Positions 3,731 through 23,830 of a stretch of DNA of 29,368 nucleotides are shown here, piece by piece. The notes beneath the pieces were generated by a model, which saw nothing but the letters and a program-made list of their open reading frames with translations, did not search any database and had not been told where the DNA came from. A program made the position numbers and the translations under genes. This DNA comes from a virus (lineage: Duplodnaviria > Heunggongvirae > Uroviricota > Caudoviricetes), in IMG/VR virus record IMGVR_UViG_2698536651_000005, positions 1-29,368 of that record. One strand, 5' to 3'. Position 1 is the stretch's first letter. Every line of letters starts with the position of its first letter.

Positions 3731-5180
3731 TACCACCTCCTTTATCGCAGGCAGGATCGGTATCAAACACCAGATCCAGCCTGCGGTTTTCATCAATTTC
3801 GGCCTTGCGCCGACGTTTAACATCATCCGGATTACGACCACTGGCGCGCACCCAGTCTGATTCTGTTGCCGCACCACCACGAATCTGGATTTTCCAGGCT
3901 TCAGCTTCCTTGACAGGATCAATCCACGGCATAACCGGACCAGAATATGTTGCGTTATATAATGTTTTTATATCCACATCCGACGGAATTTTCAGCAGCC
4001 CCGCGGCAACCACCATATTCAGCCATGCCCGGTACACCGGACGGGTTACAGCACCAATAAAACAGTCCTGCAGGATCAGATAGCCATCGGTGGACTCAAC
4101 CAGCTCCTGTCGCTGGGAACTGTAGGTACCGTTATAGTTACGTGCTGCACTGGAAAAACTCAGACGAGTGCCCGCCGCCATGGCCCGCAACTGACCATTA
4201 CGAAAAGTTTCCAGATTAGGGTTAGGCCGATCAGATTTGACCATGCCAATATCTTCCCCCTTACGCAGATCGTCATAAATAATGCCGGGAGTGATATGCA
4301 GTTCCCGATCATTATCTTTATTCGTCACAGGTTCCTCATAATCCTGCCCGTCTCCTTTACGAATATACAGCCCCAGTGCCGCAGCAACGCGCGCCGCTAC
4401 CAGCTCAGCATCTTCATATTCCTTAAGCGCACTGATCCGCATCAGCACACCGGACAACATGGATGTGCCACGCGTCTGATGAAGGCGGCGGGTAAACTTC
4501 AGATGCACCATATTTTCAGCGGCGATCTCTTTGGTTTCACTCTGTCGCCCGGTAACCGGATAATTTTTATAAACCAGGTATTTTTTCGGCCTGCCCCATT
4601 TATCCAGAAAAACCCCCTGATTCATTCCCGCAGACTCATCACTGAGCATGGGCACAAAATCCGGCTCCATTGCCTCGAGCCAGAAAGGCACACCGGCAGT
4701 CCGCGCCAGCCCGGCACCTGCGCCTCTGACCATCTGGGCAAACACTTCTCCATCACGTAACCAGGTACGCAACAGCAGACGTTCGAGCATGGGGCGCGTA
4801 TGCTGCCCGGTCACATCCGGACTGACAGACCATTCCGCCCACAAACGACGGATAATCATTGCCAGCTCTGTAGCCATATCACCATTTTTCAGTAATGGTT
4901 GTGGTTCAACAATGATCCCCTTTGCACCAATCACCCGCTCCTCAAGTTTGTCGAAAACACCGATTACCAGGTCATGATTGATGTCCAAAAAACGGGCCTG
5001 CTCCCGCAGGGAAACCGCCCCGTACTTACTGAGCTGGTCGGCAGAACGGTTTTCCCGTCGGGCTTTGTGTGTGCGTGTGGGTTTCACGGCCTCATAAGCG
5101 CGGATTAACGCTCTTGAGCGCAACCTCGCCGCTTTCCAGCCTGGAGAAAAAACACCAATCACATCATCCAGAATTGCCAT
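3675..5180 (-). CDS. portal protein (lambda gpB-like)
   Basis: 501-aa ORF between W-like gene and protease-capsid gene; ATG at 5180 overlaps upstream stop (ATGA); GGTGAGG RBS. Confidence 0.8.
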   Translation of the reverse strand: MAILDDVIGVFSPGWKAARLRSRALIRAYEAVKPTRTHKARRENRSADQLSKYGAVSLREQARFLDINHDLVIGVFDKLEERVIGAKGIIVEPQPLLKNGDMATELAMIIRRLWAEWSVSPDVTGQHTRPMLERLLLRTWLRDGEVFAQMVRGAGAGLARTAGVPFWLEAMEPDFVPMLSDESAGMNQGVFLDKWGRPKKYLVYKNYPVTGRQSETKEIAAENMVHLKFTRRLHQTRGTSMLSGVLMRISALKEYEDAELVAARVAAALGLYIRKGDGQDYEEPVTNKDNDRELHITPGIIYDDLRKGEDIGMVKSDRPNPNLETFRNGQLRAMAAGTRLSFSSAARNYNGTYSSQRQELVESTDGYLILQDCFIGAVTRPVYRAWLNMVVAAGLLKIPSDVDIKTLYNATYSGPVMPWIDPVKEAEAWKIQIRGGAATESDWVRASGRNPDDVKRRRKAEIDENRRLDLVFDTDPACDKGGGNAETERVVPQRTEGQPEE

Positions 5181-11445: not shown

Positions 11446-11522
11446 TGGAGAGCGGGTGGCGGGAATCGAACCCGCATCATCAGCCTGGAAAGCTGAGGTA
11501 ATAGCCATTATACGATACCCGC
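11446..11522 (-). tRNA. tRNA-Gly (anticodon UCC)-like, atypical 3' end
   Basis: reverse strand reads GCGGGUAUCGUAUAAUGGCUAUUACCUCAGCUUUCCAGGCUGAUGAUGCGGGUUCGAUUCCCGCCACCCGCUCUCCA: near-identical to E. coli glyT as recalled through D and T arms, anticodon loop UU-UCC-AG; acceptor 3' strand differs and there is a 2-nt insertion before CCA. Confidence 0.7.
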
Positions 11523-14927: not shown

Positions 14928-15311
14928 TTAATTAAGCTTAGTAACATCAATATCCATCTCTAAGCAAATGTCTAATGCCATTAACATACCTTCGATTATT
15001 CCCTCTGCTTTCTGTAACCTTTTCCCGATATACCCATCAGAGCAATTATGCTTCCGCGCCAGCATCATAAACGTCATCCCACCAACATAATAATCCACCA
15101 GCAAATCATGTAAGCCATTGTTGCTCTTTTTCAGACAGGCCATACATCCACAAATGATCATCGCGTCATCGTCACAGCATTGCGGACGAGATCTTACTTT
15201 TGAAGGAATTAATCCCTTAAAACCGGCGGCAACGGACGACCAGGTCACATCTTCATGATTATTAGCCGCCCACGCTCCCCAACGCTCAAGAACCATCTGA
15301 ATATCACGCAT
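14928..15311 (-). CDS. late-gene antitermination protein Q (phage 82 / DLP12 QuuD-like)
   Basis: 127 aa beginning [24 protein letters not shown], Cys-rich centre ([15 protein letters not shown]); recalled as the 82-type Q family; directly after replication genes. Confidence 0.7.
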
Positions 15312-15564: not shown

Positions 15565-16965
15565 TCAAAAGAAACGCTCCATCTTACTGCTGTCGGTTCG
15601 CTTATTGCTGTATCTGCGCGGCTGGGGCTGCTGCATTGGGGTGGAAAGAATCTGTGCGCTTTCCTGGTCTACGGGCAGAAAATGTCCGTTATAAAAACGC
15701 CGGTAAATCGTCCCCAGAGAACCGTTACGTTGTTTCGTGATATTGATTTCTGCAATGCCTCTGGCCTGCGTATCCGGGTTGTACACTTCATCCCTGTAAA
15801 GCATCAGAATGATGTCTGCATCCGCCTCTATTTCTCCGGAATTTTTCAGGTCTGAGTTCATAGGGCGTTTATTGGGCCTGGACTCCACACCACGGGAAAG
15901 CTGGCTCAGCGCAATCAACGGAAAACCACCGGATTTTGCCAGGCCTTTAAGCCCCTTTGAGATTTCACCCACGGCAAGGTCATGACGCCCCGTGGTTCGG
16001 GTTTTTATCAGCCCGAGATAATCAACCACCACCAGTGCCGTTTCCGGATGTTTAATCAAATGGTGTTTCGTTGTTACGCATATCTCGTCAATGGTCAGGT
16101 TCGCCTGGTCCACCATCCAGATATTGCGTCCGGTCATCAGCTCCACACCCTTAATGAAACGCGCCCAGTCTTCGTCACCAAAGTTAGAGACAGATTTCAG
16201 GCGCGATACAGGCATTCCTCCGGCAGCAGACACCATGCGTTCACCGATCTGAATGTTCGCCATTTCCATTGTGAACAGAAGAACACCGCGCCCCTGTTCA
16301 GTCACTTTGTCGATGATATCCAGCGCCAGTTCTGTTTTCCCCATCGAAGGGCGCGCCGCGATGAATATCAGGTCGCCGGGCTCCATGCCTCCTGTTTTTG
16401 CGTCCAGCTCATCAATACCGGTCATCAACGTCCTGGATTTCTCCAGCCCCTGATTCCGGCATTCAACACGGTCAACCACCTCCGGAAGTACATCATCAAT
16501 GTGTACAGGCTGAATAATGCCCTTTTCGGTCGACAATGAGACCATCATGTTTTGAGCATCCTTCAGGGCATCTTCAGCTGCTTCACAGGTATGCGCATCA
16601 CGTAATTTCTGCAATGCTTCGGCCAGTGTTTTTTCTGCATCACGCAGTGCGGCATTGCGTCGCAGTGCTGCAACATAGTGTTCCAGAGATGACTTCACCC
16701 AGGTTTTACGCCCGGTATCAGTAATCACCGGGGCAAGTTCCGGCATCTCATTGCACAACAGCACAGGATCAATCACGCCGGACACACGGGCCTGTCTGCA
16801 GATGCCTGTGTAGATATCCCGGTACGGTCGTACAGAAAAAACGTCCGCCGGTAGTGTGGCCAGAATATCCATCACTTCCGGATCTGCCCCACGCAAAAAG
16901 AATGCGCCAATAACAGCACCTTCCAGATCATCGTTACGCCAGACCGGACTGTTCTGGCTGATCAT
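15565..16965 (-). CDS. replicative DNA helicase (DnaB family)
   Basis: 466 aa; Walker A ARPSMGKTELALD and C-terminal RecA-like region characteristic of DnaB-type helicases; ATG overlaps upstream stop (ATGA). Confidence 0.9.
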   Translation of the reverse strand: MISQNSPVWRNDDLEGAVIGAFFLRGADPEVMDILATLPADVFSVRPYRDIYTGICRQARVSGVIDPVLLCNEMPELAPVITDTGRKTWVKSSLEHYVAALRRNAALRDAEKTLAEALQKLRDAHTCEAAEDALKDAQNMMVSLSTEKGIIQPVHIDDVLPEVVDRVECRNQGLEKSRTLMTGIDELDAKTGGMEPGDLIFIAARPSMGKTELALDIIDKVTEQGRGVLLFTMEMANIQIGERMVSAAGGMPVSRLKSVSNFGDEDWARFIKGVELMTGRNIWMVDQANLTIDEICVTTKHHLIKHPETALVVVDYLGLIKTRTTGRHDLAVGEISKGLKGLAKSGGFPLIALSQLSRGVESRPNKRPMNSDLKNSGEIEADADIILMLYRDEVYNPDTQARGIAEINITKQRNGSLGTIYRRFYNGHFLPVDQESAQILSTPMQQPQPRRYSNKRTDSSKMERFF

Positions 16966-17840
16966 GCTGCCACACCTCCGGTATGTGCCCGGTAGCTGGG
17001 CCAGTTGAAGGACAACAGGTTACGGCCACCATCCGTAACCCTGTCAGCAATACGTGGACTGATGTATGCCCACAACGCCTTCGGTGAAAGATTGCTGATC
17101 AGGATGGTTGGCAGAATACTTTCGTACCGGGCATTGATAATTTCCTGAAGAATGGCCATTTCCGCCGCGCTACCAAACTGGACACCCACTTCGTCGATAA
17201 TCAGCAGATCCAGTGATGCATAATGCTCAATCACCTCATCCGCAGTTTTTTCGCTGTCATTCCGCCAGCAGTTTTTCACAGCCCGGGTCAGGCGCATCAC
17301 GTCGGTGATCTCAACACTGGCGAGATAGTTGCGGATGACATATTTTGCCATCGCAACCGCCAGGTGATTTTTCCCGGTGCCACAACTGCCAGTCAGCACG
17401 AGATTTGTGCCGTTCTCCAGAACATCCGCCCAGTTTTCGGCATAGCGACGACAGGCAGCAAGATTTCTGGCTGCGTCAGGATTAATCTCCTGATAGTTTT
17501 CAAACTCACAGTCACGAAAACGCAGTGCAATTCCGGCGTTATCAGTCAGTTCTTCCGCCTTCAAGGACGACAACTCCATAATCACATCGTTGATTTCAGC
17601 ACTCAGGCAGTGAGGGCAGTGTGAAATTTTCTCTCTGTCCTCGCCATTACGATCCCCCCACACCAGAATATGCGTGTGATATTCGCCATGTTTTTCGCAA
17701 TATCCGCGACCTTCACGCATCCGGCAGGAACGATAAGGCCACGGTTTTTCCCCAGTCTCCGCAAACGCCATCTCAGACCGTAACTCATCCATCCGCGCCT
17801 GTAGTCTTGTTTGTTGTTCACGCAGGTTAAACGTCATCAT
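16962..17840 (-). CDS. DnaC/IstB-like AAA+ helicase loader with N-terminal Cys/His cluster
   Basis: Walker A TGSCGTGKNHLAVA, Walker B LLIIDEVG; N-terminal CEKHGEYHTH...HCPHC; ATG 17840 with GAGGTGA RBS (track start is a GTG at 17849). Confidence 0.8.
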   Translation of the reverse strand: MMTFNLREQQTRLQARMDELRSEMAFAETGEKPWPYRSCRMREGRGYCEKHGEYHTHILVWGDRNGEDREKISHCPHCLSAEINDVIMELSSLKAEELTDNAGIALRFRDCEFENYQEINPDAARNLAACRRYAENWADVLENGTNLVLTGSCGTGKNHLAVAMAKYVIRNYLASVEITDVMRLTRAVKNCWRNDSEKTADEVIEHYASLDLLIIDEVGVQFGSAAEMAILQEIINARYESILPTILISNLSPKALWAYISPRIADRVTDGGRNLLSFNWPSYRAHTGGVAA

Positions 17841-17850
17841 CGCTGTCACC

Positions 17851-19139: not shown

Positions 19140-19360
19140 ACGGCACCTCCCAGGCGTTTAAACATTTTTCCGGACTGAAACACCGCCAGTGGGTAGCTAA
19201 TGGTGTAGTTACGCCCCAGTAATTCACACACAACTTTCTGGTTTTCGGTGCTGACCAGACAAACCCGCAGAACGTGACCGTTGCTGGTGGCGAACCACTG
19301 CCCCACACGGGGGCAACGGTTGTATCGGTGATACAGGGAATTAACGACGCGGCGAATCAT
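19136..19360 (-). CDS. hypothetical protein (74 aa)
   Basis: ATG at 19360 with GGGAGGTG RBS; ATGA overlap with upstream gene. Confidence 0.4.
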   Translation of the reverse strand: MIRRVVNSLYHRYNRCPRVGQWFATSNGHVLRVCLVSTENQKVVCELLGRNYTISYPLAVFQSGKMFKRLGGAV

Positions 19361-20022
19361 GGGCGCACCTCCCATTGATTACGACGGAAAGCGGTGTGAC
19401 TGAGACTGGTTTCAGTTTCATGGAATGCTTCAATGCAGCTCTCGTAGTACCGCATTGTGCGCAGACTTAACCCAAGCTGAAGCATCATCAGGCCATCAAG
19501 GGTGATGTAATAACCACGCAGGGAGTCACCATAGATGTGATAAGTACCCGGTATGAAATTGCGGGTAAAAAACTCGCGTGAGCAGTTCAGATACTCGATT
19601 TTGTCGACGATGTTCTGGTGCATGCGCTTGAAATGGCAGGCTACATGCAAAGAGAAAATAACGGTCTTACCGTTAATAATCTCAATTTTGAGGAATGGGT
19701 GGGTAGTGGTGGTAGTCATGGTGACAGCCCCTATGTTGAATTCAAAGAACTCACCACCAAGGCTTTCCACGACCATATAGGTGGTGAGACGTACAGGGGT
19801 GGAAATACCGGTCAACATAGAACCCGGCCCAACCGAAGTTGGCCCTGCACGCCCCACCATAATTTGGGCGTAGCAATGCTCATGACACGAAAAAACCGCA
19901 TGAGCGCGGTTGTGCTCTATATTGAATTTCGGGTTTCCACGCCCGACACCCGCTTTATAAGGTGCTGGAACAGTGTAACGTCCCGAAATTGCAGAATCAA
20001 TATATTGTGCAAACATAACCAT
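19357..20022 (-). CDS. hypothetical protein (221 aa)
   Basis: 3' portion of a 509-aa reverse-strand ORF; ATG at 20022 chosen so it does not overlap the forward-strand TA genes; no SD, start uncertain; no recognised motifs. Confidence 0.35.
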   Translation of the reverse strand: MVMFAQYIDSAISGRYTVPAPYKAGVGRGNPKFNIEHNRAHAVFSCHEHCYAQIMVGRAGPTSVGPGSMLTGISTPVRLTTYMVVESLGGEFFEFNIGAVTMTTTTTHPFLKIEIINGKTVIFSLHVACHFKRMHQNIVDKIEYLNCSREFFTRNFIPGTYHIYGDSLRGYYITLDGLMMLQLGLSLRTMRYYESCIEAFHETETSLSHTAFRRNQWEVRP

Positions 20023-20040
20023 TTTGTTATGTTTTAACTC

Positions 20041-20370
20041 ATGAACTACACTATCGAATACTACAGTGAAGAGGTCAGGCTGGAGGTCGACCAGCTTCCA
20101 TTGAGTATGCGTGCCCGATACCAGCATCTTGTTGAACGCATGAAGGTATACGGCAGCAATCTCGGAGAACCTCATACCAGTGCTTTCGGTAACGGGCTTT
20201 TCGAGCTTCGGATTAAAGGTAGTGATGGCATCGCACGCATCTTTTACTGCACCCTGGCAGGAAAACGCATCATCATGCTGCATAGTTTCATCAAGAAGAC
20301 CCAGAAAACCCCACCAGCCGAACGCCAAAAAGCTGAAACCAGAATGAAGGAGGTAAAGCATGACTGGTAA
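20041..20370 (+). CDS. type II toxin, RelE/ParE superfamily (HigB-like, phage Gp49-like)
   Basis: 109 aa, ...GIARIFYCTLAGKRIIMLHSFIKKTQKTP... typical of Gp49/HigB-type toxins; 11-nt overlap with downstream HTH antitoxin gene. Confidence 0.7.
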   Translation: MNYTIEYYSEEVRLEVDQLPLSMRARYQHLVERMKVYGSNLGEPHTSAFGNGLFELRIKGSDGIARIFYCTLAGKRIIMLHSFIKKTQKTPPAERQKAETRMKEVKHDW

Positions 20371-20668
20371 ACGTAATCCGCCAACCATTACACATGATGA
20401 AATGGCTGATAAATGGATGAAGGATCCAGCTTTTAAAGCAGAATACGACGCCATCGCCGACGAATTTGCGCTGCTTGATGAAATGCTGGCAGCACGTAAA
20501 GAGGCTGGTTTAACCCAGGCTGACGTCGCTGAACGCATGGGAACCAAAGCTACTGTCATCAGCAGAATGGAAAGTAATCTGGCGTCAGGTGTCAGTGGAC
20601 CATCATTTTCCACACTGAAAAAATTTGCCCGCGCAACAGGAAAAAAACTCCAGATCCGCTTCGTGTAA
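20360..20668 (+). CDS. HTH (XRE-type) antitoxin, HigA-like
   Basis: AAGGAGGT RBS; HTH LTQADVAERMGTKATVISRMES; toxin-first gene order as in HigBA. Confidence 0.75.
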   Translation: MTGKRNPPTITHDEMADKWMKDPAFKAEYDAIADEFALLDEMLAARKEAGLTQADVAERMGTKATVISRMESNLASGVSGPSFSTLKKFARATGKKLQIRFV

Positions 20669-20689
20669 GTTTCCACCATTGCACCGTCA

Positions 20690-20863
20690 TTCTGGCGGTG
20701 CTTCGCACTCAACAAAATCACGACGAAATAACCACAACGGACTGAAACATTCATGCGGATAACCATCACGCAGGTAAATGACCCGCTGTGTTTCAGACTC
20801 CCAGCGTATAACGTGGACGCGACGCCCTCTGCCATCGCGGAACCAGCGATTGAGTACTTGCAT
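20690..20863 (-). CDS. possible small protein (57 aa)
   Basis: ORF below the track size cut-off, directly downstream of Rha gene; AGGT-type weak RBS. Confidence 0.2.
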
Positions 20864-20882
20864 GTGTTACCTGTGAGCATAA

Positions 20883-21593
20883 TCACACCTGCCAGCCCAG
20901 CGCCTGAAACAGGCCCATTTTCGGGTGATACCAGCGAGTACCTCGTGGTTCTGCTTCACTCATCATGCGATAAAAAGCAAACATGAAGGGTTCTACTGCA
21001 ACAATCGCGCGACGAGACAATAATCCGTCCGGCGTCATAAATTCATGGGTGTCGGTAGGGATCTGATATGCGTTCACCAGATTGCGGCATTTCGCATCTG
21101 ACATACCTGTTTTCGCCACCAGCTGACGGTATCCTGCATAACCATCGCGTATGGTGCCTCTTTTGATTTGTTCGACAGTTTCGGCAACGTGGCTAACTTT
21201 TTCTTCCATCTTGTCGAGGCGTTTTTGCTGACGAACTGCTTCAAGAGCCATCGCGGCAACCATTTCGATTTCGCTCATTGGCTTACGGATCTGTTCTTCC
21301 AGTTCACGCCAACGATCTACCAGGCGGGCAGTGAATTCCGGGCAAAGTTGTGCGACGACAATGATGCTGTCGCGTTTGCCTTGTTCGCCTTCGAAAATAT
21401 ATGCGTTTGTGAATTTGTTTTGGCTAAATGATTGTTCGTTCTCAACTTTTTGCATTGCAGGAAGTTGAATCACCCCGCGTTTTGCCAGACGCTCTATTGA
21501 TATTCTGACATTGCCGTGTTGACTTCCAACCAGCTCTGCGATTTCAACGCTGGTCATGGATACTTTGTCGTTAAAAATTGCGGTGTTCATCAT
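20883..21593 (-). CDS. phage regulatory protein, Rha family
   Basis: N-terminal region (SMTSVEIAELVGSQHGNVRISIERL) matches the Rha-type domain as recalled; GAGGAG RBS; ATGA coupling with upstream gene. Confidence 0.7.
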   Translation of the reverse strand: MMNTAIFNDKVSMTSVEIAELVGSQHGNVRISIERLAKRGVIQLPAMQKVENEQSFSQNKFTNAYIFEGEQGKRDSIIVVAQLCPEFTARLVDRWRELEEQIRKPMSEIEMVAAMALEAVRQQKRLDKMEEKVSHVAETVEQIKRGTIRDGYAGYRQLVAKTGMSDAKCRNLVNAYQIPTDTHEFMTPDGLLSRRAIVAVEPFMFAFYRMMSEAEPRGTRWYHPKMGLFQALGWQV

Positions 21594-22734: not shown

Positions 22735-23007
22735 TTACCTCCCCTCCCCCGTGTGCGCTAAGCTTGGATTTGATGTTTTGCGTAACGAATCAGGAATTCC
22801 ATCTTCAGGGTGAGGGTAAAGATCTGGCCTTAAGCCATGAGGCGTAACCTTCCATGCAACCACCTCACATACCCGTAAAACGAAACGAGCAGGAATTGTG
22901 CTTTTTGAAAACCACTGATTCACCGCTTGCGGTGTCACACCAAGATTTCGCGCTATGGCATTTTGCGCAATTAATGCACGAAGTTCGTCGTAATCATTTC
23001 CTTTCAT
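22735..23007 (-). CDS. Cro-like HTH regulator (YdaS-like)
   Basis: HTH NLGVTPQAVNQWF; divergent from CI repressor gene across a 133-bp intergenic region; GGTGA RBS. Confidence 0.65.
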   Translation of the reverse strand: MKGNDYDELRALIAQNAIARNLGVTPQAVNQWFSKSTIPARFVLRVCEVVAWKVTPHGLRPDLYPHPEDGIPDSLRKTSNPSLAHTGEGR

Positions 23008-23140: not shown

Positions 23141-23830
23141 ATGAAGAACGTCAAAAACACGGAAAATCGTATAGCCGCGATGCTGAAAGCAAAAGGATGG
23201 ACTCAAGCTCAACTGGCCCGTAAGTTAGGTGTGAGTGCGCAATCAGTGCAGTACTGGACAACAGGAAAGACATTTCCACGGAGTGATAAGCTTGCGCAGT
23301 TATCAGAGATTAGCGGTTATCCACAATCCTGGTTCTTAGGTGAAGACCCCTCACCGACCTTCTCCTCGCCAGAGAAACACCAGACAAGAACAGATAGCGT
23401 CGTGTTTAATGTCCTTGATGTTGAGTTCAGTTGCGGTGATGGAACTCATGTCCGTGGTGACTTGATAGATGTAGTGCGCTCAATAGAACTTGATCCTGAA
23501 TATGCCCGACGTCTTGTTGGAAATCGGGCATTCAAAAATATAGAAATAGGTAACGCCAGAGGAGACAGTATGGCTCCCACAATCTCACCTGGCGACCTTC
23601 TTTTTCTCGATAAGACAGTAACTTATTTTGATGGAGATGGCATTTATGCATTTTGTTTTGATGGAGAATGCTACGTGAAAAGACTTCAAAAAATTGGAAG
23701 CAAAATCATGGTGTTATCTGATAACCCCAATTATCAACCATGGAGCATCGAAAAAGAGGGTTTAGCTCTGCTTTATATCCAGTCTAAAGTGATCTCATCT
23801 GTACCATTCAATATAAACAGATTTGGTTAG
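23141..23830 (+). CDS. cI: CI-type prophage repressor (N-terminal HTH, C-terminal S24 LexA-like peptidase)
   Basis: HTH WTQAQLARKLGVSAQSVQYW; S24 motifs GDSM (Ser nucleophile) and YVKRL (Lys). Confidence 0.9.
   Translation: MKNVKNTENRIAAMLKAKGWTQAQLARKLGVSAQSVQYWTTGKTFPRSDKLAQLSEISGYPQSWFLGEDPSPTFSSPEKHQTRTDSVVFNVLDVEFSCGDGTHVRGDLIDVVRSIELDPEYARRLVGNRAFKNIEIGNARGDSMAPTISPGDLLFLDKTVTYFDGDGIYAFCFDGECYVKRLQKIGSKIMVLSDNPNYQPWSIEKEGLALLYIQSKVISSVPFNINRFG

Follow-up and report, generated by a model that had tools for sequence, protein, structure and literature searches.

A GP49-HigB/Xre-HigA toxin-antitoxin cassette with an apparently leaderless toxin cistron in a cargo slot of a Stx-phage-like prophage

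How does a toxin-antitoxin (TA) pair come to lie on the forward strand inside the otherwise reverse-strand early operon of a lambdoid prophage, how might it be expressed there, and to what end? The locus that raises this question lies in a 29,368-nucleotide stretch of viral DNA (Caudoviricetes; IMG/VR record IMGVR_UViG_2698536651_000005, positions 1 to 29,368; hereafter the window), in which an original prediction made from the letters alone had noted a HigB/HigA-like pair. Our analysis suggests that this is probably an autonomous type II TA 'moron' of the GP49-HigB/Xre-HigA kind, a 685-bp cargo cassette in the early-right operon of an E. coli lambdoid prophage resembling Shiga toxin (Stx) phages, with a leaderless toxin cistron, an RNase as its product, and abortive infection or exclusion as its likely role. 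The reading is built on family membership, intact key residues, purifying selection, the borders of the cassette and a conserved geometry of promoter, operator and toxin start lacking a Shine-Dalgarno (SD) sequence. The two genes are the following.

20041-20370, forward strand: toxin gene, GP49-domain HigB/Tad type, 109 amino acids.
20360-20668, forward strand: antitoxin gene, Xre-type helix-turn-helix (HTH) protein of the HigA/Ata type, 102 amino acids.

As predicted, the toxin open reading frame (ORF) comes first and overlaps the antitoxin ORF on the same strand by 11 nt; among 72 homologous loci, most have overlaps of 1-38 nt. By profile and structure-database searches, the two proteins belong where the original prediction had put them, in the GP49/HigB group of the RelE superfamily and among the Xre-HTH HigA antitoxins, respectively. 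The toxin matches Pfam Gp49/DUF891 (PF05973) with E=1.1e-25 and 89.9 bits (cut-off 23.9) over residues 15-103, covering profile positions 2-90 of 90, with an additional weak match to the RelE/ParE model TIGR02683, and the antitoxin matches HTH_3 (PF01381; E=2.1e-11, 44.1 bits, cut-off 23). When all PDB sequences were searched, the top matches were HigB (6AF3_A, E=9.9e-6) and HigA (6AF3_B, E=2.1e-4) of S. pneumoniae, and this homology, together with the Pfam membership, implies a RelE-like fold for the toxin. GP49-domain toxins form an established HigB/Tad branch of the RelE superfamily and are always encoded 5' of an Xre-HTH antitoxin gene (PMC2701414; PMC5906591).

The residues tied to RNase activity in the 6AF3 toxin are intact. 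Toxin R57, R66, F83 and K85 align with R68, R73, F90 and K92 of S. pneumoniae HigB (SpHigB), all of which have been shown by mutagenesis to contribute to RNase activity, and E55 aligns with E66, a putative active-site residue (PMC7984235). These five toxin residues are 100% conserved in 70 toxin homologues from different species. Relative to diverged copies of the same cassette, the ratio of nonsynonymous to synonymous substitution rates (dN/dS) is about 0.06-0.12 for both genes, a pattern by which both are under purifying selection. RefSeq already labels the products as a RelE/ParE toxin and an HTH protein, and we regard the pair as an uncharacterised member of the known GP49-HigB/Xre-HigA family in a known kind of setting.

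The borders of the insert could be placed by comparison with a prophage in which the site is empty, which bears out the predicted antisense insertion with exact junctions.

20004-20686, forward strand: entire cassette of about 685 bp, missing at the empty site (BLAST comparison with prophage L003).
20687-20863, reverse strand: DUF4222 gene, right border of the slot (Pfam PF13973, E=1.5e-15; annotated in L001, L002 and L003).
20681-20701, forward strand: GC-rich 3' hairpin GCACCGUCAUUCUGGCGGUGC, with the DUF4222 stop codon in its loop (fold -15 kcal/mol, z=-2.9).

In that prophage (L003, NZ_CP074991) window positions 19144-20003 and 20689-21590 are contiguous by BLAST, and the insert therefore spans approximately 20004-20686. 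At the left junction the sequence ends in ...GAATCAATAT, while the right junction falls in the final codons of DUF4222, whose stop codon is provided by the cassette. Between the two lie, in order, the putative promoter, a putative palindromic operator, the two genes and the 3' hairpin. Of 59 cassettes, nearly all have such a hairpin 10-17 nt past the antitoxin stop; its stem comes in two unrelated sequences, and the copy in the window shows a compensatory A-U pair relative to other copies.

The same slot holds other cargo in related prophages. Locus L002 (NZ_CP011416) carries there, at 3797-4536, an unrelated pair made up of a TumE-family toxin and an HVO_A0114-type HTH protein, with the same junctions, antisense orientation and a similar terminal hairpin, and L169 carries a ProQ/FinO gene (2219-2611) in the sense orientation. 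The flanks were found in 833 of 5426 complete E. coli genomes, 31 of which have the cassette at a coverage of at least 80%. A second location of the same cassette (76-86% DNA identity) is the interval from the replication genes to the nin region, both in other prophages and in isolated phages (POCJ13, 75/02 Stx and PhiR5_2); in every case it is antisense to the early operon, and homology between the two contexts extends from the -35 to the 3' hairpin. Since the TumE-type pair shares its junctions and the same cassette recurs in the nin region, we take the cassette to be a moron in a cargo hotspot; it is a discrete insert, absent in close relatives, and has its own putative promoter and 3' stem-loop within the insert. 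Neither target-site duplications nor terminal repeats were found in the junction sequences, and no integrase or transposase was seen adjoining the cassette in the annotated loci; cassettes may be exchanged by recombination in the conserved flanks. In O157:H7 Stx2a phages a 69-bp fossil of the antitoxin 3' end remains, beside ParD-like and HigA-like genes, which indicates, from sequence comparison, that TA cassettes turn over at a site upstream of the ORF6N gene as well. The fossil is unannotated and 85-87% identical in L171 (an E. coli O157:H7 Stx2a prophage, 1801-1869) and some 40 other records; it is flanked there by a hypothetical gene and by a gene annotated as 'HigA family antitoxin', with the ParD-like gene near, and the whole group is upstream of the ORF6N antirepressor gene.

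We then asked how the cassette could be expressed. Four elements were read directly from the sequence.

20005-20010, forward strand: -35-like hexamer TTGTGC, with TTG in the same place in homologous cassettes.
20025-20033, forward strand: extended -10, TGt plus TATGTT, the hexamer being 20028-20033.
20011-20034, no strand assigned: perfect 9-bp inverted repeat AAACATAAC-N6-GTTATGTTT, putative HigA operator.
20347-20354, forward strand: strong antitoxin SD AAGGAGGT, at the optimal distance, 6 nt 5' of the ATG at 20360.

Both hexamers stand as originally proposed, with 17 nt between -35 and -10 and 7 non-conserved nt between the -10 and the toxin ATG at 20041, and it is equally the case that no purine-rich SD precedes this ATG in the sequence. 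The inverted repeat occupies the promoter spacer and overlaps the -10. To place this geometry in a wider frame, toxin homologues were collected with one genome per species (38-88% identity), giving 76 non-redundant loci with 72 antitoxin starts, drawn from Gamma-, Beta- and Alphaproteobacteria, Chlorobi, Campylobacterota, Acidobacteria and others. An SD is present at 4 of the 76 toxin starts (5%), at 65 of the 72 antitoxin starts (90%) and at 28% of control ORFs. Conversely, the string TAnnnT occurs 4-9 nt upstream of 60 toxin starts (79%, with a mode of 6 nt), of a single antitoxin start among the 72, and of 10% of control ORFs; TG is found at -15/-14 in 42 of these 60 loci and TTG 16-18 nt upstream in 43. 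Most homologous loci also have a palindrome whose right arm is the -10, in three half-site classes (TAAC, TATC and TAGC). This architecture, conserved across 76 species, provides strong comparative support for a toxin transcript that begins at the AUG itself (A20041) and is leaderless, in line with what had been proposed. Leaderless genes are rare in E. coli, the known prophage examples being lambda cI and paaR2 (PMC8630535).

The same motifs might instead belong to the operator alone, in which case the toxin mRNA would start farther upstream and carry a leader without an SD, for example an S1-dependent, A/U-rich one. TAnnnT-like strings do arise automatically from the half-site GTTAT, and the toxin promoter is weak by consensus. 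We nevertheless consider a leadered message improbable, since TG-n-TAnnnT keeps a fixed distance of 5-7 nt from the ATG in all three half-site classes and the TTG in the 43 loci mentioned above is contrary to it. In addition, cassettes in different contexts are homologous from the -35 onward and hence share no promoter farther upstream, and distant Firmicutes-like relatives on viral contigs, in which the toxin does have an SD, carry promoter-like TATAAT/TATACT strings farther upstream.

The strand opposite the pair is itself open over a long distance, forming a 509-residue ORF (19357-20886, reverse strand) that had been dismissed as spurious. That judgement holds over 20023-20886, whereas farther downstream the ORF runs over isrK-like and C4-like RNA genes and an AnrP-like Rha-domain ORF, all described below. 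Could the antisense frame be the real gene, and the toxin a shorter or decayed remnant? In the prophage of E. coli EC11 (NZ_CP027255), to which the region is 98.8% identical, the Prokaryotic Genome Annotation Pipeline (PGAP) calls a 272-residue 'ash family protein' that extends over the toxin 5' end and starts the toxin at M23; the antisense frame is stop-free across the cassette, and one PHROG matches the antisense extension. Against this, the Pfam toxin domain already begins at residue 15, and the substitution pattern favours the toxin: in comparisons with five diverged copies, toxin codons 1-22 show synonymous to nonsynonymous changes of 3:0, 3:0, 8:2, 7:2 and 7:3, whereas for the antisense extension the figures are 2:9, 1:6, 2:20 and 2:27, and L005 has a stop in it. 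The open antisense frame is moreover the exact reverse-codon frame of the toxin, with no stops in the window, L001 and L006, one in L004 and L007, and three in L005, while the other antisense frames over the cassette have 7-13. Finally, the Pfam Phage_ASH match (19977-19710) overlies the Rfam isrK and C4 RNA genes, for which reason we regard the 'ash family protein' as a probable artefact of annotation. The likelihood that the antisense frame is the real gene is, in our view, vanishingly small, and on the substitution pattern, the decay of the reverse-codon frame and the RNA genes under the 'Ash' match, neither the 509-residue ORF nor the extended 'ash' was retained as a gene over the cassette. 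Selection of the open frame for anti-polarity, through ribosomes on the early transcript, is likewise unsupported, as cassettes in the nin-region context also have 0-1 stops and the diverged L005 three. The coupling-like overlap of a GTG at 20884-20886 with the Rha stop codon (GTGA) was put down to chance, since the frame that follows shows no conservation as coding sequence.

An in-frame TAA (20035-20037) stands just 5' of the toxin ATG at 20041 and likewise speaks against the EC11 annotation. Gene callers systematically place the toxin start wrongly, at an internal Met, for a product of 87 or 76 residues (L001 6808-7071; L006 3637-3867; L007 4093-4356; L008 4126-4356), and the 'ash family protein' that they call spans two RNA genes as well as the toxin 5' end. 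The varying internal starts are probably due to a true start that has no SD.

To the left, the cassette abuts a module of small RNA (sRNA) and antirepressor genes.

19972-20000, reverse strand: putative isrK promoter, TTGATT (20000-19995), 17 nt, TACACT (19977-19972), left border of the slot (read from the sequence).
19889-19965, reverse strand: isrK-like sRNA (Rfam RF01394, 59.3 bits, gathering score 50).
19911-19894, reverse strand: predicted terminator hairpin, fitting the isrK terminator (terminator scan).
19777-19864, reverse strand: C4-type antisense RNA (Rfam RF01695, 82.4 bits, gathering score 45).
19357-19719, reverse strand: AnrP-like Rha-domain ORF, 120 amino acids (Pfam Phage_pRha, 29.1 bits, just below the 29.9 cut-off).

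The AnrP-like ORF is the domain-supported coding part of both the 'ash family protein' and the 509-residue ORF; a candidate orf45-like start lies near 19859 in the same frame. This arrangement matches the order PisrK-isrK-orf45-anrP of Gifsy-1 (PMC4825925) and also resembles the P1 immI-type antirepressor module. The isrK and C4 pair is present, by Rfam, in every locus that has this slot, in two tandem copies each in L002 and L170. The isrK match begins 7 nt downstream of the end of its putative promoter, which is conserved in six loci, among which homology begins 3 nt upstream of the isrK -35. The cassette therefore occupies the gap between the end of DUF4222 and an independent transcription unit. 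As side observations, a weak, sub-threshold Rfam match to c4-a1b1 lies at 19978-19926 on the reverse strand, and reverse-strand matches to sRNA-Xcc1 (RF02221) were found in L004 (1490-1573), L007 (1989-2072) and L009 (2586-2671). In L004 and L007 the sRNA-Xcc1 match directly precedes an ORF6N/Ant antirepressor gene, and in L009 (Edwardsiella) it is found 330 nt to the left of the cassette; sRNA-Xcc1 with ORF6N would add another type of sRNA-led antirepressor module to the cassette's surroundings.

The isrK and toxin promoters stand back to back on opposite strands, their -35 hexamers 4 bp apart, and, counted from the isrK start, the antitoxin palindrome spans about -46 to -69. It is conceivable that the pair is in essence a phage regulatory device, in which antitoxin bound 46-69 bp upstream of isrK would modulate isrK, C4 and AnrP, or in which antisense early transcription would cut the antitoxin supply and let the toxin aid host shut-off. 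The cassette's position beside a sRNA-led antirepressor gene in other contexts too (sRNA-Xcc1 and ORF6N), and the need for the early operon to read through the cassette on its way to the replication genes, are compatible with such a device. Yet the slot functions empty or with unrelated cargo in either orientation, some 2 kb of other genes separate cassette and sRNA module in L004 and L007, and the isrK core promoter contains no operator-like palindrome, and we accordingly rate a regulatory device as quite unlikely. As a speculation secondary to that of a leaderless trigger, set out below, the back-to-back placement may link the state of the TA pair to antirepressor control.

The wider setting agrees with a lambdoid prophage whose relatives are Stx-converting and phiP27-like phages.

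23141-23830, forward strand: CI-like repressor (HTH and S24 peptidase), divergent from the operon.
22735-23007, reverse strand: Cro/YdaS-like gene, early-right operon.
20883-21593, reverse strand: Rha gene, early-right operon.
16962-17849, reverse strand: DnaC-like loader, early-right operon.
15565-16965, reverse strand: DnaB-like helicase, early-right operon.
14928-15311, reverse strand: antiterminator Q, early-right operon.

All real genes around the TA pair are on the reverse strand and make up the early-right operon, and with Cro, Rha, DUF4222, the DnaC-like loader, DnaB and Q as neighbours the forward-strand pair is placed within it just as had been noted. Its position between Rha and the replication genes needs refinement on both sides, since DUF4222 intervenes toward Rha, and what directly adjoins the cassette on the replication side is the isrK-like sRNA, the C4-like RNA and the AnrP-like ORF rather than replication genes. 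Elsewhere in the window a tRNA gene lies inside the prophage (11451-11522, reverse strand; Rfam RF00005, 54.3 bits). Between 19300 and 21700, eight terminator-like hairpins were counted against 2.4 +/- 1.7 expected, six of the eight on the reverse strand; one is the isrK terminator and three are antisense within the antitoxin gene (20459, 20565 and 20640).

From these comparisons we infer how transcript start, repression, RNase activity, trigger and biological role may fit together. In the lysogen the early promoter (PR in lambda terms) would be repressed, and the cassette's own weak -35/extended -10 promoter would give a bicistronic mRNA. If this mRNA starts at the A of the toxin ATG, as is probable, its first cistron would lack a leader and be poorly translated, while the antitoxin cistron, with a strong SD inside the toxin 3' end, would be well translated, and antitoxin would outnumber toxin despite the toxin-first order. 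Antitoxin dimers, alone or with toxin, would bind the 9+9-bp palindrome over the -10 and repress the operon. Once the antitoxin supply ends, the toxin, presumably a ribosome-dependent mRNA endonuclease of RelE fold, would be freed. On induction, the early operon would be transcribed antisense through the cassette to reach the replication genes, and collision or antisense pairing could then occur. Leaderless mRNAs initiate by a route different from that of SD-led mRNAs. The leaderless cistron could thus itself be a trigger, in that if SD-initiation were crippled and leaderless initiation spared (phage shut-off, anti-SD damage and stress being candidate conditions), the synthesis ratio would invert and the toxin would fire without antitoxin proteolysis; we offer this as a speculation with a small chance of being right.

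The likeliest pay-off would be abortive infection or exclusion of superinfecting phages, with prophage addiction as a by-product. We favour this defence role because the cassette is hotspot cargo beside TA-like genes, because its expression would be independent of the repressed operon, and because a HigB-like toxin, that of PD-lambda-2, is proven to act in anti-phage defence (PMC9519451). The pair might alternatively be mainly an addiction module, retaining the prophage or this part of it by post-segregational killing and taking no part in phage defence. Elsewhere, HigBA systems of the GP49 type act as RNases, are autorepressed and stabilise plasmids (PMC5906591, PMC2701414): HigBA2 of A. baumannii stabilises an unstable plasmid (PMC5906591), and the founding systems, namely Tad-Ata of pAMI2 and those of N15 and SXT, are referred to as stabilising in PMC2701414, which cites Dziewit 2007. 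Within a lambdoid prophage, paaA2-parE2 of the cryptic CP-933P is addictive and has been proposed to limit rearrangements (PMC8630535). On the other hand, segregational loss of integrated prophages is rare, the cassette is often swapped at its slot for other cargo or for nothing, where strong local addiction predicts otherwise, and it shares its hotspots with other TA-like and defence-like genes. A function confined to addiction thus seems doubtful to us, if by no means far-fetched, and defence or exclusion remains the role that we prefer.

Several points weigh against the reading of the cassette as an autonomous defence moron. PADLOC found no defence-system model matching the pair, the toxin giving a partial NsnC match only and the antitoxin generic HTH-containing models only (HTH_VI, capH and RmrA). 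At position 51, the equivalent of the putative SpHigB site residue D61, the toxin has N (20191-20193), as does the EC11 toxin; the commonest residue among the 70 homologues is D (30%), and the position is variable across the family. The predicted TTGTGC-17-TATGTT was not scored as a promoter by the consensus scan, which did not pick up any toxin promoter, with 7 of 12 consensus positions matching, and the case for it accordingly rests on comparative conservation. The half-site class of the palindrome tracks residues 64 and 66 of the antitoxin recognition helix, a co-variation that is suggestive at best because it is confounded by phylogeny. Finally, the 3' hairpin has no U-tract, which makes termination doubtful, and for that reason it may stabilise the 3' end instead.

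Comparison with known systems helps to define what is distinctive here. Tad-Ata of Paracoccus pAMI2 and its homologues in phage N15 (gp49) and SXT share with the window pair a PF05973 toxin, an Xre-HTH antitoxin and the toxin-first order, the features on which they were compared, yet those described stabilisers reside on a plasmid, a plasmid prophage and an integrative conjugative element, whereas the window pair is a cassette of an integrated lambdoid prophage. HigBA of S. pneumoniae (6AF3/6AF4) is the best solved-structure match for both proteins, with equivalents of its R68, R73, F90 and K92 in the window toxin, and its HigA and HigBA bind promoter palindromes (PMC7984235), and a palindrome is present in the putative promoter here; the similarity is however low (E=1e-5 and 2e-4), there are four promoter palindromes rather than one, and the system is not phage-borne. 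The paaR2-paaA2-parE2 operon of CP-933P, like lambda cI, offers a leaderless first gene, in a TA operon of a lambdoid prophage (PMC8630535), but there it is a CI-like regulator of the immunity region that is encoded without a leader, with ParE as the toxin, whereas in the window the toxin gene is the leaderless candidate, in a cassette outside that region. The P2/P4 anti-phage hotspots and PD-lambda-2 share with our slot variable, TA-like cargo between conserved phage genes (PMC9122126, PMC9519451); they belong to another phage family and slot, and PD-lambda-2 has three components, including a peptidase fusion. HigBA2 of A. baumannii (pAB120) and HigBA2/3 of M. tuberculosis likewise have GP49-domain toxins in reverse-order operons. 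The A. baumannii toxin is an RNase; its operon, in which the antitoxin has no promoter of its own, is repressed by the antitoxin and by the complex, and how such reverse-order systems set the toxin:antitoxin ratio has been stated as an open question (PMC5906591).

It is on this question that the geometry of the window pair offers a candidate answer. In itself the pair seems an ordinary member of its family, save for the apparent start of the toxin message at the start codon, a property that, judged by comparison, it has in common with relatives in many phyla. A limited literature search found no prior statement of the leaderless-toxin/SD-antitoxin design, which is not proof of novelty. The comparative data suggest how reverse-order HigBA operons may yield more antitoxin than toxin, namely by placing an antitoxin cistron that has an SD behind a toxin cistron that has no leader. 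They also point to the interval from DUF4222 to the isrK promoter, and to the site upstream of the ORF6N antirepressor gene, as cargo slots of TA turnover in Stx-type prophages, and hence as places in which to seek defence genes.

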